From: Porphyridium purpureum
Taxonomy: Eukaryota
Assembly: GCA_008690995.1 (NCBI GenBank)
Contig: VRMN01000001.1
Span: 310,001-374,000, forward strand
Reading direction: 5' to 3'
DNA: 64,000 bases
The position numbers were made by a program, and so were the translations under genes. Positions 11,768-55,534 of the stretch are shown piece after piece; the first letter of the stretch is position 1; the number at the start of each line of letters is the position of its first letter. The notes under the pieces were generated by a model. That model worked only from the letters and a program-made list of their open reading frames with translations. It did not search any database and had not been told where the DNA came from.

Positions 11768-11895
11768 CGGTTTCCCGGTTCAAGGATGACAATTGCCCTT
11801 ACCGGATGACTCTTGTTTCATCATTCAGAAGCACGTCATGATTACATGAAAGGTGTACTCGCGGTACAGTTTCGTTCCTCGGTTGAACATGATTC

Positions 11896-12202
11896 TGTTA
11901 AGATGTGTGGAGCATGGCAGTTAACGGTTAGTGGTTAACTTTTAGTCGTTAAGCCGTTAAGCTGATCACTGATAAGGGACGTGACTTGAGAAGGGAAACT
12001 CTCGGCTGCGGTTGTTGGCCGGCGGTAGGAGCGTAGGAGAATGGGTCCGTTGGCTTATAAGTCGCGCGCGAAGCTCGGTGCTGAGCGCGAGCGCGGTGGG
12101 CTTCGGTAGGGAGTGCGAGTTGGAAAAGTTATACGTTTAGAACTTGATAAACTTGGTCGTTGGATTGGAGGTTGTCCATCAGCGGAGCGAGGTTTCCGAA
12201 CA
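11896..12202 (+). repeat. Copia-1 5' LTR
   Basis: Direct repeat of 23616-23922; one difference seen (A11919 vs G23639). Confidence 0.97.
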
Positions 12203-12215
12203 TAAACGTATTACC

Positions 12216-13394
12216 ATGTCAACGAGAGGCGGTGCAGCGGGAGGAGCCAGGGGAGCGGCGGCGCGAGGAGGATCGCGTGGACGCGGAAAAGGGCACCACC
12301 TGACCACCGCTCGGGAGAAGGGGGCGATGGCGGAACTGCCGTTGTTAAAGTACACGGCGCGCGGATCCACCCCCGCCTACACTGTGGTCGCTTGGTTCAA
12401 AGAGTTAGGGAACTACGTCAGGCTCCACTTTGGAGAAGTTGGACGTATCTTCGATCTGAGCGAGCATGGAATGGAATACCCAACAGCAAATCCTCCATCT
12501 GCAGAGGCATTCGCAGCGGCAGAATTGTCGGGCCTCCCTCAAGATGTCGCAGCTCTCGTCAAGGCCGAGAACGTGCGCATAGTCATGCAGAGCTACCATA
12601 AGAAAGTCCGGGAGCTCGAAGAGGCCAAACCGAAGGTGTTTGCCGTGATCGTGGGGCAGCTGAGTGAAGCGTCTGTAGACGCACTGAAGCGCATGGGCTC
12701 ATTCGATGAGCTGGCAGCTTCTGCCAACGATCCCCTGGAGCTCGCCAAGCAGGTGCTTGCAGTGCACATGACGCTCGGATCTGACAGCGCTGTTCAGAAT
12801 CAGCTGTATGCGGCGGAAATGTTCCACAAGCTGGCAATGGAACCGGGTGAGTCGCTCGTGCATTTTCGAGCCAGGTTCGACGCGACAGTGCGAGCCATGG
12901 ATGCCGTTGGCGAGCACACAGGAGACGCGAAGAGGCTGGCTGCCGACTTCGCGCGCAAGCTCGAGATTTCGGGAGCGCACAGAAACACCATAGTGCACCT
13001 GCAAAACACGGGCGCGGTACTGGACACAGTGAATGAGATTGTGCGAGCAGTTTCAAACTATAAAGTCGTTCCAGTTGGAGCGGTCCCACGGGTCGGTACA
13101 ACTTTTGTGGCAGGACGTGAAGACGACGAAAGCAACGATGAGGATGAACCTCATTCCGGCAGCAAACCCGTGAAGCGCAAGGTGGATGTGAGCCGGGTGC
13201 GCTGCTACAATTGCCAGAGGATGGGCCACTTCAAATCGGACTGCACTGAACCAAACGTGGTGGTCACTCTTCGCCAGGAAGTTGAAGAGATGAAGAAAGC
13301 CCTGAGGGCAAAGAAGAAAGAGCGCAGCACTACGATGGTGGCCGTAGACGACGATGAGGCGACAGGTGGAAGTGAGTCGGGGAGCGACATTTGA
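12216..13394 (+). CDS. gag: Copia-1 Gag
   Basis: CCHC knuckle CYNCQRMGHFKSDC. Ends at TGA 13392-13394, in frame with pol. Confidence 0.9.
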   Translation: MSTRGGAAGGARGAAARGGSRGRGKGHHLTTAREKGAMAELPLLKYTARGSTPAYTVVAWFKELGNYVRLHFGEVGRIFDLSEHGMEYPTANPPSAEAFAAAELSGLPQDVAALVKAENVRIVMQSYHKKVRELEEAKPKVFAVIVGQLSEASVDALKRMGSFDELAASANDPLELAKQVLAVHMTLGSDSAVQNQLYAAEMFHKLAMEPGESLVHFRARFDATVRAMDAVGEHTGDAKRLAADFARKLEISGAHRNTIVHLQNTGAVLDTVNEIVRAVSNYKVVPVGAVPRVGTTFVAGREDDESNDEDEPHSGSKPVKRKVDVSRVRCYNCQRMGHFKSDCTEPNVVVTLRQEVEEMKKALRAKKKERSTTMVAVDDDEATGGSESGSDI

Positions 13395-14155
13395 CGGCGC
13401 GGCGCGTTGCTGCCAAAGCAGCACCGCGCGACTGTCTGCACAGGTGAGACGTTTGCAGTAGGAGAAATCGGGATTGACAGTTGCTCCAGCGACCACGTCT
13501 TTCGCGACCGTGACCTCGTGAAAAACACGAGGCGCGCAGCGAAAACGCTATTGTTGAACGGCATCAATTCGGCAAAGCCAGTGCGCATCGCATGTATTGG
13601 GGACAGTGAGTTTGGCACTGTCTACCTTTCGCGCAAGGTCTGCGGAAACGTACTCAGCCTGGGACGGTTGCGTGCTGACGGGCATAAAGTGCTCTTTCAT
13701 GATAGGTCTAATACATTTAGACTCTATTACGATAAAAGCATCTTTACGTTCCGTCCGCGCGCAGACCACATCTACACTACCACACTCCCAATCACCATAG
13801 GCAAAACACTGCTGCTCGAAGGAACAGCTGCGGAACGAGAAAATGATTTTTCGCCGAGACAGGTGGCAAGCGCAAAAGCGGCGCGCGATTTGGCGCGCAG
13901 GATGGCATATCCGTCACTCAAAAACTTGAGAGACGCACTGAGAAATGGCGGCATAATGAATTGCGAGGTGAGCGCGCGTGACGTAGATCGCGCGGAGACA
14001 ATCTGGGGCCCCGCGGTACCGGTTCTAAAAGGACGAGCCACCGGCCACAAAAGCCCGATCGAGCAGGAGTCCTGTCAAGCACGGATGAGTCGCGAAATAT
14101 CACTGCGCACAGACTTAATGTTTGTAGACGGCTATGTGTTCGTTGTGAGCGTGTG
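13395..14155 (+). pseudogene. pol: Copia-1 Pol, 5' part (protease and integrase N-terminus)
   Basis: Protease motif IDSCSSDH and integrase TDLMFV. Cut by the gypsy insertion; removing the insertion and one TSD copy restores the frame as ...VVSVC-KPMQYI..., matching LISVVKPMHFI in Copia-2. Confidence 0.9.
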
Positions 14156-14447
14156 TGTCACAAACGGAGCTTCTTTTCTTTACTTCTTCTTCTCTCCTCC
14201 TCTACCTACTCTCTTCTTCCTAGCCTTTTTTCTTCGTTCGGCTGCCGCTCGCTCTGTTTTATACCCGCCTTCCGGCGCCGCAACGGCTTGCCCGGCGGGT
14301 TCAGCCCTCGGAATAACCCAATCCCGCGGCCCTCAACATAACTCAGCTGTACCACACGGTACACCCACAGCTGTACTTTCAGTACACTTAGGGACTGTAC
14401 CTCTGCGTACTCGCTGTACTGAGACCTGCATCAGGTCGCTCGCGACA
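14156..14447 (-). repeat. Gypsy 3' LTR
   Basis: Direct repeat of 20090-20381. Confidence 0.96.
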
Positions 14448-14953
14448 TCCCACACTTCCCGCTTATCCACAGCGACCATTGCGATAGCGTGTTCTAAGCC
14501 CACGCGCCGCATGCATAGCAGCCGTTCCCGTGCCGCTCAACAGGTTCAAGCACAATGAGCTGAGATCGAGCGGACGAAGTACAGTGTAAGCTGACAGGGT
14601 ACAGTGCCAGCAACAGGGCCAAAAAAATAAGGTGGCCGGTGCCGCTCACAAGTGACGCCCACTGACAAGACCCCGTACAGGCTGCCATCCCCCTCCCCCG
14701 CTAACCTTAAAGGAAAGGTGCGCTGTTACGGCTCTGCCCAATGTCACCCCGGGGAATTACCCTAGCCACGGATCCCCAGCATTTCACAGGGGCAGTTTTC
14801 TCTAATCAGGGAGTGTCTAAGATCCTCTTCAATTCTCGTTTGCCAAACTGCCGAAATTTAGAGTATATACACCCCCAAATATGGACTCAGGTACAGTATT
14901 ACTGTACTTCACTGTACACAGACTGTACTTCATTTTGTTCTTTATCATTCGTT

Positions 14954-15110
14954 CTACCGTCTTGCTGCGGGCACGGCTCCTTCTTTACCGTCCAGCCATG
15001 GACACAGCTCCTTCTTTAATGTCCAGCAACGGACACAGCTCCTTCTTTATAGTCCAGCAACGGACCCAGCTCCTTCTTTACCGTCCAGCCACGGACACTC
15101 CATCTTTATT
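14954..15110. repeat. 31-bp tandem repeat (~4.5 copies) in the gypsy 3' UTR
   Basis: Unit GGACACAGCTCCTTCTTTAnnGTCCAGCAAC starting at 14969, 15000, 15031, 15062, with a partial copy at 15093. Confidence 0.92.
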
Positions 15111-15155
15111 CGAACATTTTTTTTGAGAGCAGCGACGGCCGATAGCCACCCAGCG

Positions 15156-18100
15156 TCAAACACCTTCTGCCATGTCTCGGTACGCGGCTACCAGCATGGG
15201 CGGGAGCGTCTTCTCAGCCTCCCATGTGTCGCCTCGCTTCCCCATACCCCGCCATCTCACCTTGTACTCGCGGCCTCCACCCGCAGCCCGATCTTCCACA
15301 ATTGCCTCCACCACCCAACTTGCATCTCCTCCAGCGAACACGTTCGTGCCGGCCATGTCTACCACGTCCGGGTCTGCCTTGTGCAAGCGGTTCACATGCA
15401 CGAGCTGGCCATGGAGCTCTGCGTCATCTCGGCCGTTTGCGCTGACCACGACTGCGTGAACCCCGTTCCGCTTTGTGATGCGGAAAGGTCCGAGCCACGG
15501 CTTTGTCAGCTTGCGACCCTGCCTCGTACTTGGGCACCACACGTATACGATGTCGCCCTCGGCAAACGTTTCCTTGTTCCGATGAATGTTTCTGTCATAG
15601 TACCTTGCAAACCTCTCGGCGTTCTCCGACATCTTATTCCCGGCGAGCCGATAGGCGCGCGCCAGCTGTGCGGAGATATCTTGCGGTTGCTGGCCCCCTT
15701 CAACCGCTCGCGGTCCGGCCATGCTTGCCCAGTCCTTGGCTGGCGACCCAAACATCATTTCGTACGGCGAGAAGCCGGTGGCTGCGTGGCGCGACGTGTT
15801 GTACGCGTAGGTTACAACGGACAGCCACCTATCCCAGTCGCGCGAGCTTGCACTGACGTACGCCGACAGCATCTTGCACAGGGTCGCATTGAAGCGCTCC
15901 ACCCTTCCGTTCGTCTGCGGGTGGTAGGCTGTCGTCATGAGCCTCCGGATTCCGAGTCTGGCGCAAAGCGACGTGATCACCTCACCGACAAAGTTTGAGC
16001 CCCGGTCGGACAAGATGGACTCCGGCGGGCCAAAGACAGTCAACCACGTCTGCAGGAAACTCCGCGCCACGGTCTCTGCCTTCTCGTCCGGGAGCGCCAC
16101 GGCAACCGCCCATCGCGTCCAAGCATCCATCATGACGAGCACCTTGATATTTCCCGTTCGCGTCTCCGGACTGATGGTGAGGATGTCCATGCCTACAATT
16201 TCAAAGCGTCTGGACGCCGAGTACTGCACCATCGCCGCGTTCCGGCGGGGTGGTGGTGCCTTGCGCGCTATGCACTCGTGGCAGCACCGAACGAACTTCC
16301 GAACGTCTTCTGTCCACCCGGGCCACCACCACTGCGCGTCGGCTATCCTCGCCGCCGTCCTCGCCGTCCCCATGTGAGCTGACAGCGGGGCTCCGTGATA
16401 GACGTTGAGAACTGCCGACACAAGCGCGTCAGGGACCACCCGCCTGGGCATGTCTTTCAGCAACGCAAACACAATCCCGTCTTCGTCCACGATATACTCA
16501 GGGAAGGAGTACTTTGGCGCGGGTCCTGATAGGTTCTTGAGCTCCGCGCAGATTTGCTCGTCCTCTGCGTACGCTGCTCTGAGCTCGTCGTCCGTGGGCA
16601 CAGCGTATAGCGCCCCACTGTCTTGCGTGTCCCGTACCTCCCGGACCTCTTCTTCCGTGCCAGTGTCCAGAGGAGTACGCGATAGCGCATCGGCCACGAT
16701 ATTCGCTGCGCCTGGCTTGTGCTTCACGTCAAACTCGAAATCTTGCACGCGCATGATCCACCTTGCCGTCCGACCCCGTGGCTCTTTCTGGCGAAGCAGC
16801 CACAGCAGCGCCGAGTGATCCGTCACGAGAATGAACTTCTTGCCGAACAGATAGTGCCTGAACTTTTCCATGGATAGTATGGCACCCAAGCACTCTTGCT
16901 CCGTGACGCTGTAGTTCAGCTCTGCGCCTCGGAATGCCCTTGAGTAAAAGGCCACCGGGCGCCGCTGGTCCCCTTGAAGCAAGACCGCGCCAATGCCCAC
17001 CTGGCTCGCGTCGACTTCAAGAACCATCTCGGCGGCCGGATTGAATGCAACCAGGACTGCGCTACCGTCGTCCATCGGATCACCTAGCGCATGGCGTAGG
17101 TCTATGAACGCGGCGCGCTGGTCGTCCCCGAATCTGCTCGCCCACTCTGCGCCACCGGCCGTCTTCCGGTGGAAGCCACCTTTCTTGTCCGTCAATCCGA
17201 GCCCAGTCAGCGCTCGCCTCAGCGGGAGGGCACGCTCCTCGAAGTTCGGTATGAAGTTACGAAACCAGCCGACCAGTCCCAGGAACCGCTGCAGGTCCTT
17301 CGCTTCTTCTGGCTCTGGCCACTCCAGGATTGCCCGCGTCTTATCTACCCCAGGCCGCAAACCTTGCGGGCCAATGCGATGGCCCAGAAACTGTACTTCT
17401 GCCAGAGCAATCTTGCACTTGCGGGCCGACAGTGTAAGTCCCGACGCCGCGAACCTTCGCAAGATCTGACGAAGTCCTTCCACATGTTCCTCGAAGGTCT
17501 CATGTCCCACTGTCAGATCGTCAATGTAGATCTGCGCGTGTGCATGGCGCATAGGGCCCAAAATCCGGTTGTTGAGTCGCTGAAACGTTGGCGGGCTATT
17601 GCAGCAGCCCTGCGGCAGACGCGTGTATTCAAATAGCCCCTCACGTGTGATCATGGCAGTCAAATGCATGCTTTCTGGCGCAAGGGGCACCTGGAAAAAC
17701 CCGTCCTTGAGATCGAGAGCGCTCTTCCATCGGCGCCTCGAAAGCCAGTCGAGCATCTCCCCAACGTCTGGGATTGGGTACCTGTCCTTGATTGTGATTG
17801 CATTGAGCGGGCGAAAGTCGGTAGTCATCCGATACGATCCATCTGGTTTCCGGATCAGTACGTTGGCTGCTGCACACTCCGACGTGCTCGGCTGCAGCAC
17901 TCCCTTAGCGACAAGGGCTTCGACCAGGCTGCGCTCAGCCTCGTTCTCGGCCTCTGAGCGCCTGCGCACTTTGGCCACCAGAGGGCGCTGGCCCGGTTCG
18001 ACAGTGATGGTGTGTTCCACCAGGTCCGTTAATCCCATGGACGGCCTGAACAGCACCCACGCCTCAGCTAGGACGTCGCCGACTCGTTTGCGCTGCTCGG

Positions 18101-18764
18101 GCTCGAGATGCCCAAGCTCGATGGCCGCGGCGTTGCGCAGGGCTTCCTCTTTCTCGGCCGCGTGCTTCTGCTCCAGCTGGGCGATTCGACGATCAATCTC
18201 GCCCGGTTCTTCAAGATGACCGATGTGTTCTGGGCCCGGCAGACCACTCACTTGCTCGAACGGTAGAGAACCTCCACGCTTGAAGAACACAGCTTGACCT
18301 GGCAGCACGGCCGCGACTTCTCGAACCTGGAAGTCCCAGCCGATTAAGAGATCTGTCTTGAGGTGTTCCGCCACTCGGACCGTCTCGCACGGAAAAACGA
18401 AAGACCCGAGATGCAGATCCAGAAACCCAACGCTGACTCTGCCCAAGGAGGCGCCGTCCGGCCCTCGCGCTCCCCAACTTGACGGCTGCGTTTTCAAGCC
18501 GAGCCGGTCAGCCACGCTCGGGCTCACCCATGTTGAGTTTGCGCCCGTGTCCAGAACTGCCAGTGCGACCACTGCCTGGCCACATGCGGTGAGCTTCACC
18601 CGCAACGTCGGACTGTTGTCCGCACGCACGGCCAGCTCCGCGTCGCCGTCTTGTTCCTTGGCGTACGCCGCGCCTTGCAACTCTGCCTCACCTGAGGCAT
18701 CGCCCGGCTCCCACCATTCCATGCAGGGGGCAGCTACTGCTTGCTGCCCCACTGCCCGTTTTTT
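15156..18764 (-). CDS. pol: Gypsy Pol (PR, RT, RNase H, integrase, chromodomain), entered by -1 frameshift
   Basis: LDTGA protease, RT YIDD, RNase H VDAS...E...TDH, integrase H-H-C-C and SDRGSNF, GPF motif, chromodomain WVVEAIV...EYKVRWRG...DTWE. Confidence 0.95.
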   Translation of the reverse strand, partial: KKRAVGQQAVAAPCMEWWEPGDASGEAELQGAAYAKEQDGDAELAVRADNSPTLRVKLTACGQAVVALAVLDTGANSTWVSPSVADRLGLKTQPSSWGARGPDGASLGRVSVGFLDLHLGSFVFPCETVRVAEHLKTDLLIGWDFQVREVAAVLPGQAVFFKRGGSLPFEQVSGLPGPEHIGHLEEPGEIDRRIAQLEQKHAAEKEEALRNAAAIELGHLEPEQRKRVGDVLAEAWVLFRPSMGLTDLVEHTITVEPGQRPLVAKVRRRSEAENEAERSLVEALVAKGVLQPSTSECAAANVLIRKPDGSYRMTTDFRPLNAITIKDRYPIPDVGEMLDWLSRRRWKSALDLKDGFFQVPLAPESMHLTAMITREGLFEYTRLPQGCCNSPPTFQRLNNRILGPMRHAHAQIYIDDLTVGHETFEEHVEGLRQILRRFAASGLTLSARKCKIALAEVQFLGHRIGPQGLRPGVDKTRAILEWPEPEEAKDLQRFLGLVGWFRNFIPNFEERALPLRRALTGLGLTDKKGGFHRKTAGGAEWASRFGDDQRAAFIDLRHALGDPMDDGSAVLVAFNPAAEMVLEVDASQVGIGAVLLQGDQRRPVAFYSRAFRGAELNYSVTEQECLGAILSMEKFRHYLFGKKFILVTDHSALLWLLRQKEPRGRTARWIMRVQDFEFDVKHKPGAANIVADALSRTPLDTGTEEEVREVRDTQDSGALYAVPTDDELRAAYAEDEQICAELKNLSGPAPKYSFPEYIVDEDGIVFALLKDMPRRVVPDALVSAVLNVYHGAPLSAHMGTARTAARIADAQWWWPGWTEDVRKFVRCCHECIARKAPPPRRNAAMVQYSASRRFEIVGMDILTISPETRTGNIKVLVMMDAWTRWAVAVALPDEKAETVARSFLQTWLTVFGPPESILSDRGSNFVGEVITSLCARLGIRRLMTTAYHPQTNGRVERFNATLCKMLSAYVSASSRDWDRWLSVVTYAYNTSRHAATGFSPYEMMFGSPAKDWASMAGPRAVEGGQQPQDISAQLARAYRLAGNKMSENAERFARYYDRNIHRNKETFAEGDIVYVWCPSTRQGRKLTKPWLGPFRITKRNGVHAVVVSANGRDDAELHGQLVHVNRLHKADPDVVDMAGTNVFAGGDASWVVEAIVEDRAAGGGREYKVRWRGMGKRGDTWEAEKTLPPMLVAAYRDMAEGV
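18727..18764 (-). promoter_or_regulatory. -1 programmed ribosomal frameshift signal
   Basis: A AAA AAC in the gag frame, 7-nt spacer, 8-bp stem GGGGCAGC/GCTGCCCC. Pol is in the -1 frame. Confidence 0.88.
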
Positions 18765-20032
18765 GGTCCGTGGCTCAAGCCACCGTCCGGATACGGCGCA
18801 CGTGGTGCTCCACCTTGGCCCGCGGGGCGATGCACTCCCCCATCGGCCCGTGGCCATCCATTGCGGCAATCCCTCTTCAAGTGTCCAAGTTCGCCGCACT
18901 GCCAGCACTGCGGCTGTCCGGGCAAAGCAGTCGGAAGGGCTTGGCGCTTGGCCTGTGGCCCGAAGCTCTCGACCTGGTACACATCCTCTGCGTACAGGCC
19001 GTAGTCACGACCGCGCTTCTGGATCGTCGTGCCCGGGACCTCGCCTATGCGGCCCACTCTCTCGCGGCCAAGCGGGCGTTGCTGGCCAAACGGAGGAAGC
19101 GGGCGACTCGGTAGACCCTTCAAACCATCTTCACCGACGTGGTCCACCAGAGCTGAGCGCAGCTTGGTGAACGAGACGCTCACGCCGATCATGCGGACCG
19201 TGTTCTTCAAGAACGCGGAGTCCATGGCTTCGATCAACACGTCCTTCTTGTCCTCGTCGTCCATCTTGAGCCCGTCAGCCTTGGTCTCCAGGTCGTTCAG
19301 AAAGACACTCAAGCTGGCTTTCCCCGGTTGGAACTTCATGCGGCGGAGCTCGGCTTTCAAAGCCTGGCGGTGCTCGACATTGAAAAACATGGACTCCAGT
19401 GCCTTCCACACACGGTTCGCTGCGCCGGGCCCTGCCGCATCGACATCTTTGATCACGGCTTGGTACCTTGACACCGCGGGCCCACCAAAGCAAGCGCTGA
19501 TGTGCTCCGCGACATTGTCCCTTGCGAGGCCAAGTGTGTCCGCGTGCGACTCCCAGCAGGTCCGCGACGCGAAGAAATGAGCGTCACCTGGGGCCTTGAT
19601 AAGAACTTGAGCACTGCGGACCGCCTCGCGAAAGGTTGCTGCGAGCTTCAACTGCTCCTCCCAGAACGACCGATCCATGGTACGGCCCGAGGTCTGCGCC
19701 GAGTTGCGGCTGTGCGCCTGGGCCTCCAGTTCAGCAACGCGAGCGCGAAGGGCCATCACTTCGGCTCCGCCCGGTGCAGCTAGGTCTCCAACCGGGACAA
19801 CGGACTCTGCGTCGGCTGCGGCTTCCAGGTGACCTGGCGTCCCCTGCTCATTGTCGACAGCTTCACCCTGGTGCTCCACGACAGGCCCGTCTTCTGGCGC
19901 TGGGCCCCCGGCACGAGCGGCCCCTGCTTCGATGATCGCGGATCCGCTGCGTGGCTCCCCAAGTCCTGCCACAACTGCTGCCTCGCGAGGCCCACCTGCC
20001 TCTCCAACTCCTGCCCCACGCCCACGCGCCAT
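18734..20032 (-). CDS. gag: Gypsy Gag
   Basis: CCHC knuckle CWQCGELGHLKRDC; position directly after the 5' LTR. Confidence 0.88.
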   Translation of the reverse strand: MARGRGAGVGEAGGPREAAVVAGLGEPRSGSAIIEAGAARAGGPAPEDGPVVEHQGEAVDNEQGTPGHLEAAADAESVVPVGDLAAPGGAEVMALRARVAELEAQAHSRNSAQTSGRTMDRSFWEEQLKLAATFREAVRSAQVLIKAPGDAHFFASRTCWESHADTLGLARDNVAEHISACFGGPAVSRYQAVIKDVDAAGPGAANRVWKALESMFFNVEHRQALKAELRRMKFQPGKASLSVFLNDLETKADGLKMDDEDKKDVLIEAMDSAFLKNTVRMIGVSVSFTKLRSALVDHVGEDGLKGLPSRPLPPFGQQRPLGRERVGRIGEVPGTTIQKRGRDYGLYAEDVYQVESFGPQAKRQALPTALPGQPQCWQCGELGHLKRDCRNGWPRADGGVHRPAGQGGAPRAPYPDGGLSHGPKNGQWGSKQ

Positions 20033-20089
20033 CCTATCCCACTCCCAACCCCACACTTCCTCGCTCCCACACGACCAATTTGCAAATTA

Positions 20090-20381
20090 TGTCACAAACG
20101 GAGCTTCTTTTCTTTCCTTCTTCTTCTCTCCTCCTCTACCTACTCTCTTCTTCCTAGCCTTTTTTCTTCGTTCGGCTGCCGCTCGCTCTGTTTTATACCC
20201 GCCTTCCGGCGCCGCAACGGCTTGCCCGGCGGGTTCAGCCCTCGGAATAACCCAATCCCGCGGCCCTCAACATAACTCAGCTGTACCACACGGTACACCC
20301 ACAGCTGTACTTTCAGTACACTTAGGGACTGTACCTCTGCGTACTCGCTGTACTGAGACCTGCATCAGGTCGCTCGCGACA
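20090..20381 (-). repeat. Gypsy 5' LTR
   Basis: Direct repeat of 14156-14447; TATAAAA on the minus strand followed by a purine-rich R/U5. Confidence 0.96.
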
Positions 20382-20385
20382 TGTG

Positions 20386-23300
20386 TAAGCCCATGCAATA
20401 TATATTGCTGGATCGTGTCACGAGCAAGAGCGCTCATCATCTGCAAGAGGCGTTGCATAAGCAGTTCGCTAGCTTGAAAAGCTTCGGTGCAAAAGTTGTC
20501 GAGATCCGCAGCGACCCAGAGAGCGGAATTGTGGCCGCAGTTGACTGGATGAAAAGCAATGGTGTGATCCCAGACATACTGGCCGCAGGCGAGGCTGTCC
20601 AGCCCGCAGAAAGGGCCATCAGAATGGTGAAAGAGCGAATGCGGTGCGTCCTGAGCGGCTTACCATTCCGAATGCCGAAGAGCCTAACCGGGTTCCTGGC
20701 TGAGTATGTAGTGCAGCGCATAAACATGATGAAAAGCTCCGTTGCGCCAGAGTACGATGGGCGATCGCCATATGAGGATCTGACAGGGCGCCTGGTTGAC
20801 GCGAAGAAGGAGCTAGCACTCGGATTTGGAGACTATTGCCAGTCGCACAGCAAGAGCGTCGACAGCACAATGGCCGAACGAACGACAGGATGCATCGCGC
20901 TGCGTCCGACCTTAAACCTGGCCGGATCATGGCTGTTCTACAACCTCAATACAAAGAACATCATCACGCGACAGAAGTGGAACCAGTTACCGCATCCAGA
21001 CTTCGTTATATCCAGGATGAACGAAATTGCTGAGCAACAGAGTGCGAGTGGTGTCGTCATAGATATTGAGGACCAGCCGCATGACGACGAAGAAGAGGAC
21101 GTGGAGGGCTTGCTAATCGATGAGCAAGATCGGCCGGAGCTGAACGCAGCGGCACAGGAAGATGTCGACCTTGTTGTGGTGGAAGCGGATGAGGACGGCG
21201 ACGCCTCGGTGGAAACGGCAGAAGAGAACGCGCGCCAAGCACAAGGCGATCCAGTCCTGGAAGAGCTGTGCACAGCAGAGGTAGCCAGTAATGCAGCGCA
21301 GGAGGCACTCGGAACTGAGACGCGCATTCCAACCGAACAAAGCCCCGCGGAGAGTTATAGTAGTCCGCAACAAGACGTTAGAGCTCTGCGATCGCAGCTC
21401 ACTGTTAGAATGCAAGCGCCGCTGGGTACCGCAAAGACGCGCTCGCCGACGAGCACGCAAGGACCTGGACAGCAACATTTTATTCCATCTGCCTCACAGA
21501 TTGTGCCTCGCGCCACAGCACCCGAAGCAAGTCCAGCGATTCGGCAAGAATACCAAGGCAGCACGCTTGCACCGAGCGCTTTGAACGACCAGCGGCTTTC
21601 AGACATGAGCACGTCAGGTGGTCGGAACGGTTGCGAGCCAGAGGTCATTGTTGATCCGCTGACAAGAACAAGCACAGCGACATACATCGACGAGCACATG
21701 GTGAAGCTGGCGGGAAAGAGGGCGCGAGCCAACGGCTCTGTGAGAGCAGAAGACATCGCCGAGAAAGTGGCCAAGCTGCAACGCAGGATTGACGAAATTG
21801 ATCAGCGTGAAAAGGAAATAGTGGAAATACAGAAAAGGACAGAGAAGAATGATCGGAGCAAAACCGGAAAGCGGAAGCAGAGCAGTGAGGACTGGGCGGA
21901 TGACGAAGAGTCTCACAAAGCGGACGCCAAAAAAGGACGAGCCTTTGTGCTGTCTGCGAATAAGAAGGGTCTTACAGCAAACATGAGTCTGATGTCGGCT
22001 TTCCGAAAGCATGGCTTGAAAGCGGTCCGTGCGGTCGTCAAGGAGGTTGCGCAACTGGATAGTAAGTATGGCTTTGGGGTTATCACTCCCGTGAGTGTGC
22101 AGAGCCTGTCAGAGGCTGAGAGGAAGCAGATCCTACCCACTCACATATTTCTCAGAGAGAAGCTTGACGCAGATGGATCGATCCAGAAAATCAAAGCCAG
22201 AGTTGTAGCGGGAGGCAATCACCAGGATCCAGCAGTGTACCCGAAGAAGTCGTCACCGACTGTTGCCACAGATAGTCTGTTATTGCTCGCAGCAATAGCA
22301 GCCAACGCAAAGTACGCTGTGGGTAAGGCTGACTTTCCCGGTGCGTTCTTGAATGCACTAATGCCTCCTGATGGTCCAAAGGTACACGTGAGGTTGGACA
22401 GGTACCTGACGAGGGTGTTATGTGGCCTAGACGACAAGTATCTTCGTTACGTGCGCTCCGATGGCGGCTTGGTGTGCGTTTTGAAAAAGGCGCTGTACGG
22501 AACAATCATGGCCGCGCGCCAGTGGTTCCTGACGGTAAAAAAGATGTTGCAAGAACTGCGCTTTTCGCAGAATCGATTCGACGAGTGCGTATTCAGACGC
22601 GGCAATGTATCGCTCGCAATACACGTTGACGACATAATCGTGTTCGCTCCGTCCGCGCGCGAGGTGAAAATTGTGTTGGATGAAATCGAGCGCAGGTACC
22701 CAGGACTGCAGAGAGAGCAGGGGGATACCGTCGAGTACCTGGGTATGCGCTTTGCATTTGACAGAAGTACAGCCACTGTGCTGGTTAGCATGAATGGATA
22801 CATCGGCACCATGCTGAGCGAGTTTGGTGCAAGTGGACGGGCGCGCACGCCGGCAGGTACTGACCTGTACGAAGTGGGATCGACCGAAAGGCTCACAAGA
22901 GATAAGAAAGACGATTTCCACACGTGGACAGCGAAGCTGTTGTACGTAGCCAAACGCGTGAGGCCAGACATCCTTACGGCCGTCGGGTATCTGACGACGA
23001 GGGTGCACGAGCCGAACATTCGCGATTGGCAAAAGCTGGAGCGTGTCATGAAGTATTTGGCAGCCACCCAAGAAATGGGTCTGCGACTTGGAGCGAGCAC
23101 GGAGAAAACAGTGGTCTGCGGTGCGGACGCGTCGTACGGTGCATGCGACGACTATAGGTCGGTCACGGGGACTTCGGTCACGTTGGGTACCGGGGCTGTG
23201 TACGCCAGGAGCAGCAAGCAGAAGCTTGTGACAAAAAGTTCGACAGAAGCCGAACTTGTCGCTGCCAGCGACAGTCTCGGGCAGGTGCTTTGGACGGCGC

Positions 23301-23644
23301 GGTTCCTTCGCGATCAAGGCTTCGAGCTCAAAGAGAGTGTGTTGCTTCAAGATAACAACTCTGCCATAGCGCTGATGAAACACGGCAAGCCAACCTCCAT
23401 GAGGACAAAGCACATCGGAATCCGGTATTTCGTCGTGCACGACGCAGCGGATAGAGGCGACATACGCGTCGTGTATTGCCCAACCGAAGATCTGACCGCA
23501 GATCTGTTAACGAAACCTCTCCAGGGCAAGGTCTTTGAAAAGCACCGTGCGAACTTGCTCGGCTCCGCGAGCACGAAACACGTTGCTTATGACAACACGC
23601 GCCAAGGAGGGAGTGTGTTAAGATGTGTGGAGCATGGCGGTTAA
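20386..23644 (+). pseudogene. pol: Copia-1 Pol, 3' part (integrase core, RT, RNase H)
   Basis: SDPES...AERAIR integrase core, KARVVAGG, LKKALYG, HVDD, SSTEAE, TKHI, ADLLTKPL. Stop codon lies inside the 3' LTR. Confidence 0.92.
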
Positions 23645-23922
23645 CGGTTAGTGGTTAACTTTTAGTCGTTAAGCCGTTAAGCTGATCACTGATAAGGGAC
23701 GTGACTTGAGAAGGGAAACTCTCGGCTGCGGTTGTTGGCCGGCGGTAGGAGCGTAGGAGAATGGGTCCGTTGGCTTATAAGTCGCGCGCGAAGCTCGGTG
23801 CTGAGCGCGAGCGCGGTGGGCTTCGGTAGGGAGTGCGAGTTGGAAAAGTTATACGTTTAGAACTTGATAAACTTGGTCGTTGGATTGGAGGTTGTCCATC
23901 AGCGGAGCGAGGTTTCCGAACA
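23616..23922 (+). repeat. Copia-1 3' LTR
   Basis: Direct repeat of 11896-12202, followed by TSD GATTC. Confidence 0.97.
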
Positions 23923-24046
23923 GATTCATGGGGTTAAAGAACCACACACACATCGGATGACATGTTGCAGGACAGCCTGAGATGGGCCGCGGACCCGGGA
24001 GACGGTGCGCGGGCCGTCGTAGCGAAGCGGAAGCGCGTGTAAGTCA

Positions 24047-25279: not shown

Positions 25280-25462
25280 TGTCACAAACGGAGCTTCCTT
25301 CTTCACTTTCTCTATTCTCCTCTACCTCTTCTCTTCTCCTTCCTAGCATTTTTTTCTTATTGTTCAGCTGGTGCTGGAACTATGTTATACCCGCCTTTCG
25401 GCGCCGCAACGGCTTACCCGGAGGATTCAGCCCTCGGAAAAACCCAATCCGGCGACCATCAA
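25280..25462 (-). mobile_element. Truncated, diverged LTR of the same gypsy family, with an adjacent tRNA-type PBS
   Basis: Starts TGTCACAAACGGAGCTTC like 14156 and 20090 and stays alignable to about 25462. On the minus strand it is followed by AG then TGGCGTCTTGTGG. Confidence 0.85.
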
Positions 25463-25644
25463 GATAAAGTGCGTCTCAAACAATTAGCACACTGCAAAAT
25501 TTGTCCATTTTCATAGTAAATTATGAAATTTTACCATGAAGACGTGTTTCGGAGGGGGAAACAGGATGCTCAAATAAATAGCACATCAGTATTTTGGCGC
25601 GCCCGGCGGCGGCCAGTCGACAAGAAGGCGATCTCGGGCGGGAA

Positions 25645-28804: not shown

Positions 28805-29014
28805 TATTCGGTTTTTATGCAACCCGTACCGCAACCCATAGTAAAACATAGTAAAACATAGTAAATAGCTAGAGCCGTTAAACCGGTAGCCCTTCTAGCA
28901 TGAAACCGTTAAGCCGGTAGGACAAACGAAACGTTCAAGACGTGAAGCAGCGCACAAGTTCGGGCTGGCGGAGTTTACGGAGCGCGGGAAGCGGGACGAA
29001 GAAAGTTCCTTACG

Positions 29015-30859
29015 ATGCCGAATGAGGACACTCTGAAGCGTTACCGTGCAATTGTGTGCGAGTTTTTGGGAATGGTACGAGGCGAGGCTGTCGATGTCTG
29101 GACGCCGGAAATGATTCAAGGGATCAAACCGGAGCACGTGGTTGACTTTTTTAAAACAAAAGTTTACGGCTCCTGTGCGCCAACGGCAAGTCAGCGGCCA
29201 GGAGGGCGCACGAGCAGCTTGGTATTATACAGAAAGGCGATTTCGCACTGTAAGCCATCACGAAATACGGAGTGGACGTATATTATCGAGACTCCCGCGG
29301 GCGGTGACGTTGTCACTAGGTACTTTGGGAATCCCACTAGGTGCCCAACTGTCAACGATTACATCAAGAAACTGCGTAGACTTGAAATCCGCAAATTGGG
29401 CAAGGAATCAAGTGCGAGAAGACCAATGTCGCGGGCTGAGTACAAGCGAATGATTGAAATTCTCGAGAGAGAGAAAGAGTTTAAGTACTCGGCCATTTGC
29501 AGGCTACAGTTCCATTTGATTGCGCGGCGGGATGATACTTGTCGGGCCTTCAAGTGCAATCTTCTTCAACATGAGCGGTTCAAGTTTGCGCTCACCATGA
29601 AGCTCGCGTGGTCGAAAAACGTTCTAGAAGAGCGAGACTGCCCTCGCCAAATTCTTCTAGCGTCTGAGCAGCATTGTGTGTTTGTAGCACTTGCGCTCTT
29701 TCTGGAGACAAACACAGACAACACGAATGAGTGGCTCTTTGACAGCAGTCCAAAGCTGCTGAAAGACAGGCTCATGAGCCACCTCCAAACCAAAGTTTTC
29801 AGTGGTCTTGTCAAAGTGGGGACGCATTCGGTGCGGAAATTTGCGCTTACACATGCGCGAGAAAACGGGTGCTCCCGGGACGATGCAAAGAGTCGTGGCA
29901 GATGGAAAGTGTCAAGAGACATTTTGAATACATACGAAGATGTGAGTTTGCCGTACCCGGACGCGCGCGTTGCCAGCGCATTGTCGCTTGGTGGTGCAAT
30001 ACGATATCATGTGGATGAGAGCAAAGTGACAGACGACTGAATAATTGCGCACGTGGTGCCAATGACAGCACGTGAATACCCTCGCGGAGTTGCGGTGGAG
30101 TTAGGGAAAGCATTGTTATGGCACTGCTTCGCTACGGACGCAGACTTCGGCGGCGTGTCGATTCGTATCAAGCGCGCGTATGCTGCGAGCAGCGCAAGCT
30201 GCCAACGCCCTGTCAAGCGCATGAAAGCGTGCATTAGTGGACACGAGGGTGTCGTCAATATCGACGATATACCAGAAGACGACGCACCAACAGCTGGCTC
30301 CGCGCGAGACGGCACGAGAAGCCATGACGTGCACGTTCTCGCCTCCGTCAATCGGTTGGAGGGAAGTATAGAGCACAAGATTGTAGGGCTTCAATCGGAG
30401 ATGAGAGCTCAAGCCGCAAAGCTGGAAAGCTCCATGGAGCACCTCAAACAGACTGCAACGCGAGCCTTGCGAATGCCAGTCCGTCGCAGCGTGCACATTA
30501 AATCTGTCGGGACCCCTGGTATACTTGACGGCCAAACGTCACGCGTGGACCCTGAGAGGCCAGCCGCTCTTGCCAAGAATCCCAGGACTATTCACGACTT
30601 ATGGAATGAGTACATGTTCGGATTGGTCGGCAACAAACCAGCGAAGGATTTTACCGCACCCGAAAGAGGGCGCGTCAAATTTAAATACTGAAGGAGAAAC
30701 GTAGTCTGGCAAGAATTCGAAAGACTTGTAAGACAAGGTCATGATTCAACAAGTGCGTGTGACAAAGTTTATGAAGCCTACGGCCGGGCAGCTTCGGTGA
30801 CCGAAATTATCGACAAAATGAAAGCTGCTCGCAAAACCGGAGGACATCATGCGCTGTAG
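29015..30859 (+). mobile_element. Crypton-type tyrosine-recombinase transposon ORF with a GCR1_C-like C-terminus and two in-frame TGA stops
   Basis: YR catalytic residues: LIARRDD (R), GTHSVRK (HxxR), RGRW, TYED (Y); also GNPTR. C-terminal PRTIHDLWNEYMFG...KPAKDFT...KY*RRNVVW. One frame with stops at 30038-30040 and 30689-30691, final TAG at 30857-30859. No RT nearby. Confidence 0.82.
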
Positions 30860-49848: not shown

Positions 49849-50203
49849 TGTTGATGTACGTGCAAATGGTTAATGGTTGAATGGTTATCCGGGTCAACGA
49901 CTTGGACTGTTTGGACTGTTTAATGTGTTCGGTCGGGTGCGAGCCTGCGTGCTAGCACGAGCCATGGGCACGTATGTTTGCGACGTTTCTAGAAGTCCAC
50001 ACTGACGTTTCCTTGTCGCTTTGCATCTCCGCGCCGCCGCCACAGTGCAGCTACAGGGGTATAAAATGCTGCAGGGCCAAGGAGTAGGGTGGAAATTTTG
50101 AGTGTAGCGTTTGGGTAGGCGAATATGTTTTTGACGCGAGTGGTATTACAAAGTAAACCGTTTCTTGACTTTGCAGGGTTTACGCCGGGGGCGTACTTCA
50201 ACA
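49849..50203 (+). repeat. Copia-2 5' LTR
   Basis: Direct repeat of 55180-55534; TATAAAA at 50060-50066. Confidence 0.97.
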
Positions 50204-50329
50204 CAAAAACATTCAACGCTTCCTCCGCTTCGTCAAGAGTACGAGCGGAAGTAGGATCTCCGGTCAAGGGTACGGGGGGACAAGGCCGACGGCGCTGACA
50301 GGAAGTTCGAGCGGCGTGCGGCAGACAAA

Positions 50330-51361
50330 ATGGCCAAGAAGATTGGCGAAAAGGGAGTAACGGAGGGACTCCCGCTACTGAGGTATGATGCGACCGAGAT
50401 GCGGCCGGCCGAGGAAGTCACGGAATGGCTCCGTGCGCTTGGAGGCTACACAGCTGTTGAATTTGGGTTGCTCGGAGCGATTTTCGACCTCAATAATGCG
50501 AGGTACCCAGAGGGCCCGGCCCTACCGGACGCAGAGGAGCCCGACAACTGGAGAGACAAGGAAATCGCCAAATCACAGTTGAGCACCGCGCTCAAATGGA
50601 GCGCGGATATGGAGCTCGCGAGGTCCAGAATCTATGCGATTATGCGCGGACAGCTGTCTACGTCTTCCGTTGCGGCTCTTTCTGCTCGCCCGCAGTTTGA
50701 GATGCTTGAAAGATCTCGCAACGATCCTCTCCAGCTGAAAAATCTAATCGTCGTGGTGCACCTGACACCGAATGGCGCATCCGTGGATCGTTGCCGTACA
50801 TTTGCACGTGAGCGGTTTCAAGCTATAGAAATTGGAGCAGATTCTCTGGATGATTTCAAAACCAGGTTTGCGGCCGCAGCGATGGTTCTCGCCCTTGTAG
50901 GCGAGGAGATGAGTGCAGCGCGTCAGGCGGAAGAGTTCTTCCATAAGTTGGAGCGGTCGCGCTTCGCAGAGGCAATTCGCCAAGCCCACAATGCCGAGCG
51001 ACAATTTGCAAGCGTTCAGGACGTGGTTTTGTACGTCTCCGCGTACAAGTATGCGCCTGGTTATGTGTCCGTTTCAGTTGCGCAATCCAATGAAGCCCAG
51101 TTAGCCATCGAGGCGGCCACTGTAAGTGGTGAAGCGATAGCTGCGGTTGCAAAAGCTGATGTAGGCGGTTCCAAGGGGAAGTGTCATTTTTGTGGTATCC
51201 CGGGACACCTGGAGAAGAACTGCTGGAAGAAGAAGAGGGCACTGGAAAGGAACCAGACCAGGGACGCTCACACACGAACCATGGAAGAAAAACTTGGCGA
51301 GTGCCAGCGTCAACTTCAGGAACTTAAGCTGGAGCTCAAGAAAGAGCGCACGGTCGAGTGA
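50330..51361 (+). CDS. gag: Copia-2 Gag
   Basis: CCHC knuckle CHFCGIPGHLEKNC; homologous to Copia-1 Gag (LPLLRY, GQLS, NDPL). Ends at TGA in frame with pol. Confidence 0.9.
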   Translation: MAKKIGEKGVTEGLPLLRYDATEMRPAEEVTEWLRALGGYTAVEFGLLGAIFDLNNARYPEGPALPDAEEPDNWRDKEIAKSQLSTALKWSADMELARSRIYAIMRGQLSTSSVAALSARPQFEMLERSRNDPLQLKNLIVVVHLTPNGASVDRCRTFARERFQAIEIGADSLDDFKTRFAAAAMVLALVGEEMSAARQAEEFFHKLERSRFAEAIRQAHNAERQFASVQDVVLYVSAYKYAPGYVSVSVAQSNEAQLAIEAATVSGEAIAAVAKADVGGSKGKCHFCGIPGHLEKNCWKKKRALERNQTRDAHTRTMEEKLGECQRQLQELKLELKKERTVE

Positions 51362-54300
51362 GGAAGCGGCCCGTTGCGACACGTGTATGTCCACCGGGCG
51401 ACAAACAGGGAAGCGGCCACAGTGGGCCTTGATACAATGGCTTCGGAGCATATCTTTTCGAGTGGTGAGGCGGTTACGAACGTGCGCAAGACGGACCGGA
51501 AGGTCGTGCTGCACGGAATTGACGCCGGATCAAGTGGAATATTTATTGACGAGATTGCCGACACCAAATTTGGCGAAGTGTACTACTCGCAGAAAGTGGC
51601 CGGGAACATCTTGTCATTCGCCAAGCTGAGGAACGAAGACAAGGGCACCAAGTATGACATGGCCGGGGACGTGTTTGTTGTTCTGGATGTTGACAACAAG
51701 GAAGTGCGTTTCAGACAGGACCAGGGGCTGTATGTGGCGGATATCTGTTGCGTAAGTGGTAAGATAAACGCATACGCAGCTCCTTGCAATGGCCTGACGC
51801 ACGATCTTGACAACATTCCCGCACACAAATGCTTCTCCACTGACAGCCGCCACAACTCCATGGAGCGTTCAGCTTTACCGTTACCTAGTGGCGGCAAACC
51901 TTCGCCCTTCACAAAGCAAGAGATAGCCCGGGCAGAACAAGCGCGCGACTTACAACGTCGCTTGGGATTCCCTTCGTTCGACGTGCTGAAAAAAGTGCTT
52001 AGGCGCGGGGATGTTGAAAATTGTAATTTGGCCGCGCGGGATGCAGAGAGAGCCGAACAATTGTTTGGCCCAAGCGAAGCCGCGATCAAAGGAAAGGCAA
52101 CTGGACACAAGCCTACGGAAGTTGGCTACGTCCCGATAAGAAATGAGGAGGTCTACCAAGAGATGCATTCGGATATCCACTTTCTCTGCGGACAAGCCTT
52201 CTTGATTTCTGTCGTGAAACCAATGCACTTCATTCTGACAACAGCGATCAGAGCAAAGACGTCATGGGAGCTGCGCCGGGCACTGCAAGAACAAATTGCC
52301 AGTTTGCGAGGTCACAACGTGGTGATCAGGGTCATCAAGTCGGACCCGGAATCGGGGATTGTTGCTATCGTTGATGACATGAAAAGGTCCGGCATATTAC
52401 CAAATGTCACGGGAGCGAAAGAGGCCGTACCAGCAGTGGAGCGTGCCAATCGAACGCTGAAGGACATAGCGAGGGCTGTCATCCATGGCCTACCCTTTGC
52501 ATTGCCGACCAGCTTGGTTCCAGCGCTAATGAAGTATGTAACTCACCGGGCCAACATCGTACCAAGCAGCACAGGTTGGCGAGATGACGAGACTCCGTGG
52601 ACCAGAATGACCGGGCGAAAAGTTAGCAGCACAGCCGATGTGAGTCTCGGTTTTGGCGATTACGTTCTCATCATGAATGCCAAGGTGGACAACACGATGA
52701 CACCACGCGCCACCGGCTGTATAGCTCTATACCCGGTAGGCAATGTTGAAGGAACGTGGGCTTTTCTAAACCTCGCGTCGCAGAAAGAGTTGCGCAGACA
52801 ACGGTGGAGGAAAACTGTCATTACACAAGAGGTTGTTGCCGCTGTTAACGCCATGCGTGGCACTGCGCGCCTTGAACTCGCGACAGAAGATCATGAGCAT
52901 GAGGCAGAAAAACATGACACCGCCGGACGGGAGGCAGGCAAGCCAGCTGGGGCAGCAGCGACTCGAACAGCTAGTGGGTTGACCTTGTCAGCCGGAGCGT
53001 TTAGCGAGACACGTGCAGCGCGTTCTGCGAATGAACATGAAGAAACTCTGGAGAATTCGCGCACGTCAGCAGTAGTAGAATCATCACAACCGAACCGTAA
53101 TCCAGGAGCGGGAGAAAACGCAGAGGAAAATCCGGGAGTGCGGGTCGAAGCAATCGAGAAAAGAATTGAGGAATTATCTCGAAAAGAGGCCATTCTGCAG
53201 GAACAGATCCACGCGCTTGACAAACGTGCTGCTGCCTACCAGGTCAGCGACGATCACGACGTCTTAGGCGAAGGTCAGGCTGTTCAAGTCGGCGTGGTCG
53301 AAGGGGCACCTGCAGAGTGGGATCTCGCAGATTGCACAATGACAACGAAAAACGTACTGGACGGACATGGTGAACAGGCTGGACCGGCTTCTGTCGGCGG
53401 ACTTAGCACCAAAAGAACGGCAGCGGATCAAGGCGGAAGTGACGGGTGCAATACATACGCAGGGGAAGCAAAAAGGCGTAGAATTAGGCTAGCTCTAATT
53501 ACAGAGTTTGTCCAAGCGCACTGTTTGAAAGCGCCGACCGTCTCATGGTTGAGAGCAGTCCAGGAGTATGGCGAGCCTGCACTTGAATCGGTCATGAGCG
53601 AGCTCGTGCAGTTGGGGTCCAATGGTCACGACGTGTTTGAGCCTGTGACAAGGAGACTCAGTGAAGACGAGTTGCGCAATGTTTTGCCCGTGCATTTGTT
53701 TGTGACGGAGAAACGTGATCCACAAACCGGAGAGCTTGTGCGCTTGAAAGCTCGACTGGTTGCTGGGGGTGATCGACAGGATCCGGAGTTGTACCCAAAT
53801 ACGTCGTCCCCAACAGTCGCTACTGAGTCGTTGTTTGCGCTTGCTGCCATGTCAGCAACACAAGGGAGAAAGGTTGCCAGTGTAGATTTTCCAGGTGCGT
53901 ATTTGAATGCAGTGATGCCAAGCGGTGATCCACCCGTTTTCGTTCGGTTCGCAAAGGCGCTGGCGAAGTGTATGACGACCGCTGATCCGACACTCCAGAG
54001 CCATTTGTCTGCTTCAGGTACATTAGTCTGTCGCTTGAAGAAAGCATTATATGGTTGCCGGACGAGCGCAAAGTTATGGTATGACCATCTATGTCGAAGC
54101 CTCGCGGCGTTGGGATACCAAAGAAGCATGGTAGACTATTGCGTGTTCAGAAGCGATGAAGACGACACCTGGTTAGCTTTACACGTGGACGACATGAAGA
54201 TTATGGCTGTAAACGACGCCGCGATCGTCAAACTGGTAAAGGGACTCGAGCCGGAGTACGGAGTGCTCACGATGCGCAGCGGCAGTGGGATTGAATATTT

Positions 54301-55204
54301 ACAAATGGTTTTTGACTATAACCAACCTGGTCAAGTTACCGTCAGGATGCCCGCATACGCGGACAAGATCATTGAGCAGGCCGAGCCATTTGTGCTGGGT
54401 AAGGTCGGTGGCAAAACCCCCGCATTGGACGACCTGTTTCAGGTTCAAGACTCGCCATTGCTGGCTGCTTCCTCCGCGAGAGCCTTCCACACGACAGCCT
54501 GTCAACTTCTTTATCTCAGCAAGAGGGCGAGACCAGATCTGCTGGTCGCGGCATCATTCTTGACGGGTCGAGTACAAGCCCCAACCGAACAAGACAGAGA
54601 AAAGCTGCGCAGGGTTGTGCAGTACTTGCAAGGAACGCGCGAGCTGGGGCTCACACTTGGGTGCGTCGGAGCGCCGCGCGTGCACTGTTTCATTGACGCG
54701 TCCTTTGGTGTGCACAGCGACATGAAGAGCCACTCTGGCTGCATGGTCAGCCTGGGCCGCGGAACGGTGTACGGGAAGAGCAGCCGTCAGAGTCTCGCGT
54801 CCAAGAGCTCAACAGAGGCAGAGCTAGTCGCCATCAGTGACTGCATAGGTCAAGCTCTCTGGATCGAGAGGTTGCTGCGAGGGCTCGGTGTGGAGTGCCT
54901 CAGCACCCTGTTGTACCAAGATAACGAGGCCACCATGAAATTAGTTCGTAACGGGCGTCCCAACTCGTCGCGGACCCGACACATTGCTCTGAGGCACTTC
55001 TTCGTCAGCGACAGAGTTGCATGCGGCGAGATAGAGATGACGTACTGCCCCACGGAGCAGATGGTGGCGGACGCTCACACCAAGCCCCTGCAAGGAAAAG
55101 CTTTCCGCTCACTTCGTGAACGCATGTTGGGCGTTGAGGTTGCGAATCTAGCGCAGGCTAACACGGACCGACGGGAGTGTGTTGATGTACGTGCAAATGG
55201 TTAA
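51362..55204 (+). CDS. pol: Copia-2 Pol (PR-IN-RT-RH), presumably translated by readthrough
   Basis: LDTMASEH, SDIHF, SDPES, VERANR, KARLVAGG, LKKALYG, HVDD, SSTEAE, TRHI. No ATG precedes the protease Asp; stop lies inside the 3' LTR. Confidence 0.93.
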   Translation, partial: GSGPLRHVYVHRATNREAATVGLDTMASEHIFSSGEAVTNVRKTDRKVVLHGIDAGSSGIFIDEIADTKFGEVYYSQKVAGNILSFAKLRNEDKGTKYDMAGDVFVVLDVDNKEVRFRQDQGLYVADICCVSGKINAYAAPCNGLTHDLDNIPAHKCFSTDSRHNSMERSALPLPSGGKPSPFTKQEIARAEQARDLQRRLGFPSFDVLKKVLRRGDVENCNLAARDAERAEQLFGPSEAAIKGKATGHKPTEVGYVPIRNEEVYQEMHSDIHFLCGQAFLISVVKPMHFILTTAIRAKTSWELRRALQEQIASLRGHNVVIRVIKSDPESGIVAIVDDMKRSGILPNVTGAKEAVPAVERANRTLKDIARAVIHGLPFALPTSLVPALMKYVTHRANIVPSSTGWRDDETPWTRMTGRKVSSTADVSLGFGDYVLIMNAKVDNTMTPRATGCIALYPVGNVEGTWAFLNLASQKELRRQRWRKTVITQEVVAAVNAMRGTARLELATEDHEHEAEKHDTAGREAGKPAGAAATRTASGLTLSAGAFSETRAARSANEHEETLENSRTSAVVESSQPNRNPGAGENAEENPGVRVEAIEKRIEELSRKEAILQEQIHALDKRAAAYQVSDDHDVLGEGQAVQVGVVEGAPAEWDLADCTMTTKNVLDGHGEQAGPASVGGLSTKRTAADQGGSDGCNTYAGEAKRRRIRLALITEFVQAHCLKAPTVSWLRAVQEYGEPALESVMSELVQLGSNGHDVFEPVTRRLSEDELRNVLPVHLFVTEKRDPQTGELVRLKARLVAGGDRQDPELYPNTSSPTVATESLFALAAMSATQGRKVASVDFPGAYLNAVMPSGDPPVFVRFAKALAKCMTTADPTLQSHLSASGTLVCRLKKALYGCRTSAKLWYDHLCRSLAALGYQRSMVDYCVFRSDEDDTWLALHVDDMKIMAVNDAAIVKLVKGLEPEYGVLTMRSGSGIEYLQMVFDYNQPGQVTVRMPAYADKIIEQAEPFVLGKVGGKTPALDDLFQVQDSPLLAASSARAFHTTACQLLYLSKRARPDLLVAASFLTGRVQAPTEQDREKLRRVVQYLQGTRELGLTLGCVGAPRVHCFIDASFGVHSDMKSHSGCMVSLGRGTVYGKSSRQSLASKSSTEAELVAISDCIGQALWIERLLRGLGVECLSTLLYQDNEATMKLVRNGRPNSSRTRHIALRHFFVSDRVACGEIEMTYCPTEQMVADAHTKPLQGKAFRSLRERMLGVEVANLAQANTDRRECVDVRANG

Positions 55205-55534
55205 TGGTTGAATGGTTATCCGGGTCAACGACTTGGACTGTTTGGACTGTTTAATGTGTTCGGTCGGGTGCGAGCCTGCGTGCTAGCACGAGCCATGGGC
55301 ACGTATGTTTGCGACGTTTCTAGAAGTCCACACTGACGTTTCCTTGTCGCTTTGCATCTCCGCGCCGCCGCCACAGTGCAGCTACAGGGGTATAAAATGC
55401 TGCAGGGCCAAGGAGTAGGGTGGAAATTTTGAGTGTAGCGTTTGGGTAGGCGAATATGTTTTTGACGCGAGTGGTATTACAAAGTAAACCGTTTCTTGAC
55501 TTTGCAGGGTTTACGCCGGGGGCGTACTTCAACA
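55180..55534 (+). repeat. Copia-2 3' LTR
   Basis: Direct repeat of 49849-50203. Confidence 0.97.

Follow-up and report, generated by a model that had tools for sequence, protein, structure and literature searches.

A UGA stop codon followed by a conserved predicted hairpin at the gag-pol junction of two copia elements of Porphyridium purpureum, a candidate for programmed readthrough

One copia retrotransposon in the DNA analysed here raises the question of how its Pol protein is made when the gag frame closes with a TGA and pol continues in the same frame directly behind it. The window, by which we mean the whole stretch of 64,000 nt, is the forward strand of P. purpureum contig VRMN01000001.1 from position 310,001 to 374,000. 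The element in question (element 1, plus strand) lies between a 5′ LTR at 11896-12202 (TG...CA, 307 nt) and a 3′ LTR at 23616-23922, within an intact target-site duplication (TSD) of GATTC (11891-11895 and 23923-23927). Its gag ORF (12216-13394, ATG at 12216, 392 aa) contains a zinc knuckle near 13200-13250 (PF00098, E 9e-7). The first part of pol (13395-14155) encodes the protease and the start of the integrase in the gag frame, and the second part (20386-23644) encodes the integrase core (PF07727, E 1e-19), RT and RNase H in a frame that, by coordinate count, is continuous with the first. Between them sits a nested chromodomain gypsy element on the minus strand (14156-20381, TSD TGTG), and as this breaks pol at 14155, the copy in the window is now unable to make full Pol. 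Loose ends of a contig and of RNA reads at 14156 indicate that uninterrupted copies exist.

The window holds a further copia element (element 2, 49849-55534, plus strand), which is intact, with identical 355-nt LTRs and the TSD TTTAC. Both elements belong to Ty1/copia by their TG...CA LTRs and TSDs, the order gag-PR-IN-RT-RH and a copia-type RT. The LTRs differ at 1 of 307 positions in element 1 and at 0 of 355 in element 2, the TSDs are intact in both, and on these marks both elements are young. The motifs HVDD and ARxVAGG presumably resemble those of CoDi, the diatom copia elements. The paper describing the P. purpureum assembly reports a recent expansion of LTR elements, with 545 LTR/Copia pieces (PMC6811547).

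The original prediction held that gag of element 1 ends at TGA-CGG, that pol carries on in that frame and lacks an ATG ahead of the protease motif, and that a hairpin begins 7 nt past the stop. The sequence and its translation bear this out. The stop occupies 13392-13394, the Asp of the protease motif IGIDSC is codon 28 past it, no ATG occurs in any frame between the two, and the first in-frame ATG of pol is codon 170. The 7-nt spacer CGGCGCG (13395-13401) leads into the predicted hairpin at 13402-13429 (GCGCG-T-TGCTGC-CAAA-GCAGCA-C-CGCGC), which consists of five G-C pairs, a U.C mismatch, six pairs and a CAAA loop, and is followed by GAC (13430-13432), common to element 2. It folds as described, at -20.6 kcal/mol, with pair probabilities of 0.98-1.0 when the stop and spacer are kept single-stranded. 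A longer stem, in which UGACGG would pair with CUGUC, was dropped as unconserved, being absent from element 2. Within the window, no Rfam recoding or SECIS model matched at its gathering score.

In element 2, gag (50330-51361) and pol (51362-55204), both on the plus strand, are likewise in frame through a TGA. The cassette at this junction (51359-51402) is made up of the TGA, the spacer GGAAGCG, a hairpin at 51369-51399 (GCCCG-T-TG-C-GACA(CGTGTA)TGTC-CA-C-CGGGC) and GAC, and again there is no in-frame ATG between the stop and the protease Asp. The two spacers agree in length and in their last three bases. When the stop and spacer are left out of the fold, both elements give the same hairpin at +8, and the pattern common to them can be written UGA N4 GCG GCSCG U UG C...CA C CGSGC GAC. 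The basal stems differ by one compensatory pair, changed on both sides from G-C to C-G; the upper stems are unlike each other and differ in length by 3 nt, one codon, so that the frame is kept. At the protein level the gag sequences are 31% identical and the integrase and RT/RH sequences 39-40%. In codon alignments gag, PR and RT reach 44-50% identity, whereas 21 of 23 bases are common to both elements around the basal stem, counted by eye over a segment picked post hoc. With one in-frame stop between gag and protease and a protease devoid of its own start codon, both elements fit the layout of MuLV, Tca2 and Tj1. Over the part searched, the pol of element 2 is 100% identical to an NCBI P. purpureum protein.

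The hairpin of element 1 ranks first in stability among the 5,097 32-nt windows of gag-pol, for a window size picked after element 1 had been seen, and it stays within the top 0.2% for window sizes 28-50. Compared with dinucleotide shuffles it is modest (z -1.45 to -1.77), and 3 of 3,000 synonymous-codon shuffles matched it (p = 0.001); the corresponding value for element 2 is p = 0.003. Helix starts of this kind (5 pairs, dG <= -15) occur at 7 of 5,088 coding positions in element 1 and at 3 of 4,799 in element 2. The predicted hairpin of element 2 is the weaker one (-15.9; plain shuffles place it at z about 0 to +1.5), and its pair probability is 0.99 at 80 nt and 0.01 in a 150-nt window, where another fold wins.

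The stop is kept in both elements as DNA and in the contigs and reads of element 1; other Porphyridium families are known as gene models. Mapping of reads and contigs covered element 1 in 4 of 24 runs, with a listing threshold of 3 reads. The DNA contigs X5 (12582-13542) and X1 (13146-14156) have no other letter at the stop among the variants listed, and RNA crosses it about 70 deep in X23 and about 8 deep in X22, nearly all in sense orientation. Copies with a sense codon in its place, which the original prediction had named as evidence against itself, appear nowhere among the variants listed for these two contigs and two RNA sets. Likewise, no joint or deletion over the stop is among those listed for the approximately 78 RNA reads and contigs X1 and X5. 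For family 2, three clustered proteins (four accessions) omit the same junction, and as all of them omit it, this suggests that the stop is present in all. At 13146 we observed that 46 X23 reads, 4 X22 reads and one X1 contig join a foreign sequence ending in TGACA, which was not found within the window. It resembles the end of another LTR and seems to promote transcription across the stop as far as about 13640, and much or most of the X23 RNA over the stop comes from this rearranged copy.

We find three alternatives to readthrough that need to be weighed, and the strongest of them is low-level splicing of a short in-frame intron spanning the stop, in which case the hairpin would restrain splicing. 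Donors (GTGAGT or GTGAGG) and ACAG/G acceptors surround both stops in frame, allowing a 72-nt GT-AG intron in element 1 (13372-13443, GTGAGT...CACAG/G, with a 78-nt version from 13366) and a 51-nt one in element 2 (51358-51408), both on the plus strand. When codons are set to TGA throughout, an in-frame GTRAG...CAG/G interval covers only 108 of 1,608 in element 1 and 53 of 1,541 in element 2, which puts the joint chance of both intervals at about 0.067 x 0.034. Moreover, the NCBI models of family 2 (P0001, P0006, P0007) use exactly the 51-nt intron. These models are, however, BRAKER2/AUGUSTUS predictions according to the supplement of the assembly paper (PMC6811547), and other Porphyridium models (P0004, P0011, P0163) omit different, larger pieces. 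The donor and acceptor positions are non-homologous between the families, whereas the stop-to-stem distance is homologous, and an intron would have no need to keep the frame. Spliced full-length RNA would also be expected to leave intronless DNA copies, and none is among those listed. The original prediction had looked to RNA to exclude splicing, and here it succeeded in part: with no joint listed in the reads over element 1, the chance of seeing at most 2 spliced reads is 0.013 if 10% of the RNA were spliced, but 0.25 if 5% were, a level that is still compatible with the data. On balance we regard splicing as unlikely.

Pol could instead be made without fusion to Gag, through reinitiation, through non-AUG initiation or from a separate pol RNA that starts at an internal promoter, for which Tca2 offers a partial precedent. 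A UUG is codon 5 after the stop in both families, within the stem. In four other Porphyridium models an in-frame Met lies 9-21 residues ahead of the protease Asp, the depth of X23 RNA goes up at 13146, and minor promoter activity is described for the Tca2 junction (PMC2194720). The step in depth is, however, accounted for by the reads joined to foreign sequence, the absence of an in-frame ATG before the Asp in elements 1 and 2 argues against a start there, and free Pol would need another way into the particle, a point raised in the Tca2 work (PMC2194720). Judging from the placement of Met codons, separate initiation is possible for the four families with a nearby Met and not for elements 1 and 2, and we consider it distinctly improbable as the source of Pol. 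It could also be argued that a mutation to the stop disabled these elements, that the hairpin is a product of chance, and that the elements are mobilized in trans. The copy of element 1 is already broken by the nested insertion, and broken loci are as frequent as continuous ones among evaluable relatives (24 of 50 each). Against this, the same stop and stem recur in two families whose frames otherwise stay open for 1,280 and about 1,340 codons, the listed contig and read variants have no other letter at the stop, and the hairpins stand out from synonymous shuffles in both elements. We hold this explanation to be very improbable, and largely refuted already.

We favor programmed readthrough of the UGA, stimulated by the hairpin, as the best reading of both junctions, and from the sequence we would give it a probability of roughly 0.72. 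Readthrough fits because the frame is conserved, the distance from stop to stem is fixed and the protease has no start codon. This central proposal of the original prediction gains from the recurrence of stop, spacer and stem in another family; it is weakened in that splicing is excluded only in part and that CGG is not conserved. The leaky context UGA-CGG, to which the prediction had also appealed, is present in element 1 and is not conserved, as element 2 has UGA-GGA, so that the +4 base is C in the one and G in the other. We suggest that the TGA is the inherited gag end in this Porphyridium copia lineage, at which most ribosomes would terminate and release Gag. With the UGA in the A site, the stem would be placed at the mRNA entry channel and could slow termination, and in a few percent of cases a near-cognate tRNA would insert a residue. 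One RNA would in this way supply a high ratio of Gag to Gag-Pol.

The gag-stop-pol layout as such is already known from Tca2, Tj1 and MuLV. The closest likeness is to Tca2 (pCal) of Candida albicans, a Ty1/copia element with gag-UGA-pol, which shares the copia domain order, the single in-frame UGA and a short spacer followed by structure (PMC2194720). The account of Tca2 gives a purine-rich spacer of 8 nt and proposes a pseudoknot, in contrast to the 7 nt and simple hairpin kept in two families here, and it reports that a yeast reporter showed no readthrough at its junction, which is similar to these (PMC2194720). The host of Tca2 also belongs to a different kingdom from Porphyridium. MuLV is described as obtaining Gag-Pol from a single RNA that is structured immediately 3′ of the stop (PMC3159437; PMC2194720), and the spacer of element 2, GGAAGCG, is similarly purine-rich with G at +4. 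MuLV differs in having UAG, an 8-nt spacer and a compact pseudoknot, and its readthrough has been measured at about 5%, whereas ours is predicted. Neither junction is a Type III (gammaretrovirus) signal, as both have UGA and a 7-nt spacer, element 1 has a 4-nt loop, and no pseudoknot is evident by eye. Type II signals (alphavirus, tobravirus, furovirus) carry a conserved CGG or CUA after UGA; element 1 has CGG and element 2 has GGA. The UGA-CGG of element 1 and the 7-nt spacer before the stem of the furovirus CP are points of likeness, while Type II stems mostly span about 100-150 nt compared with 28-31 nt here (PMC3159437). Published spacers before the stem of readthrough stimulators are given in the same source as 7-9 nt (PMC3159437). 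The fission-yeast elements Tj1, Tcry1 and Tosmo1-3 have a conserved in-frame TGA between gag and pol as well, but they are Ty3/gypsy elements whose conserved signal is the sequence GAA-TGA-CT, and the available part of that report makes no mention of a hairpin (bioRxiv 2022.12.06.519325). Diatom copia elements are described with gag and pol separated by a single stop or frameshift or by none (PMC2806351). Our search by title and abstract opening, with subscription papers and Repbase outside its reach, returned no report of gag-stop-pol readthrough in red algae.

The stop appears to be derived, as distant relatives mostly have a single continuous ORF. We compiled 80 related loci (78 from metagenomes, 2 on prokaryote-genome contigs), 30 of which were too short; the 50 evaluable ones comprise 24 with a continuous gag-pol frame (with four pairs that each look like one element found twice), 2 with one in-frame TGA before the protease and 24 that are broken. 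The two metagenome copia loci with a TGA have other surroundings: a weak stem after a 5-nt spacer in L032:4210, and TGA-CTA with a long weak stem in L076:1086. Among 142 non-Porphyridium representative proteins, the source of four of which was checked, the stretch ahead of the protease has at least 250 residues in 83, at most 70 in 27 and an intermediate length in 22, and 10 are without protease. A FastTree of PR-IN (170 rows, rooted at the midpoint, after removal of near-duplicates and short segments) places the Porphyridium copia families in one clade (0.999), with elements 1 and 2 on opposite sides of its deepest split. We infer that the cassette was gained once, probably at the base of this clade and from a single-ORF ancestor. 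The other Porphyridium families, about five in number and represented by gene models only, start near the protease or omit the junction, with gag C-termini of the models compared by eye. A neighbouring clade of 14 proteins, all of which start 17-86 residues before the protease, might be split too. As DNA, Porphyridium families were found neither in the metagenome contigs (78 loci, 23-37% identity) nor in viral contigs, and the prokaryote genomes gave 2 stray single-ORF contigs. The latter (L079, L080) represent one eukaryotic copia element with a single ORF that turned up in two bacterial MAGs, probably through binning contamination. A search with the gag of element 1 had no match, and one with the gag of element 2 returned one degenerate model.

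Both elements have a further peculiarity just behind their 5′ LTRs. In element 1, 12203-12211 is the exact reverse complement of LTR positions 12131-12139, 71 nt before the LTR end (chance 0.002), and in element 2, 50204-50212 is that of 50125-50133, 78 nt before the LTR end (chance 0.01). By eye, neither element has a primer site of the tRNA-Met type. These LTR-complementary 9-mers suggest self-priming similar to that of Tf1 and TAR, and self-priming is described for the TAR copia elements (PMC6317226). The 5′ ends of element 1 RNA lie near 12115-12119, which comes close without being exact.

How the stop is bypassed in copia elements with gag-UGA-pol has been open since the failed Tca2 reporter, and the two natural variants of the cassette, with their compensatory change, define exact mutants for testing. 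If readthrough is true, red algae are added to the organisms with recoding, the mechanism was acquired within a clade of mostly single-ORF elements, and the intron in the public Porphyridium 'Copia protein' models is fictitious. If the RNA is spliced instead, this would be a hairpin-regulated mini-intron, which is also worth knowing. Rather more tentatively, and with the odds somewhat against us, we speculate that a whole red-algal copia clade turned its single-ORF ancestor into a readthrough-regulated form by inventing a compact hairpin of 30 nt whose U.C mismatch is conserved. This hairpin would work without UGA-C, would have persisted as the proteins drifted apart to 30-40% identity and would be paired with self-primed reverse transcription, making it a minimal, portable structural stimulator.

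Other features of the window deserve mention. At 18764-18700 (minus strand), the nested gypsy element has overlapping gag and pol frames with a correctly phased A AAA AAC and a strong downstream stem of -30.5 kcal/mol, a candidate -1 frameshift site. An ORF of 364 codons at 28946-30040 has no Pfam match, and we take its motifs to resemble those of a tyrosine-recombinase (Crypton-like) transposon protein. At 25352-25467, part of the gypsy LTR recurs in an 82% copy that is probably a solo LTR or an older one, and a 31-nt tandem repeat at 14959-15113 lies between the gypsy pol end and its 3′ LTR.
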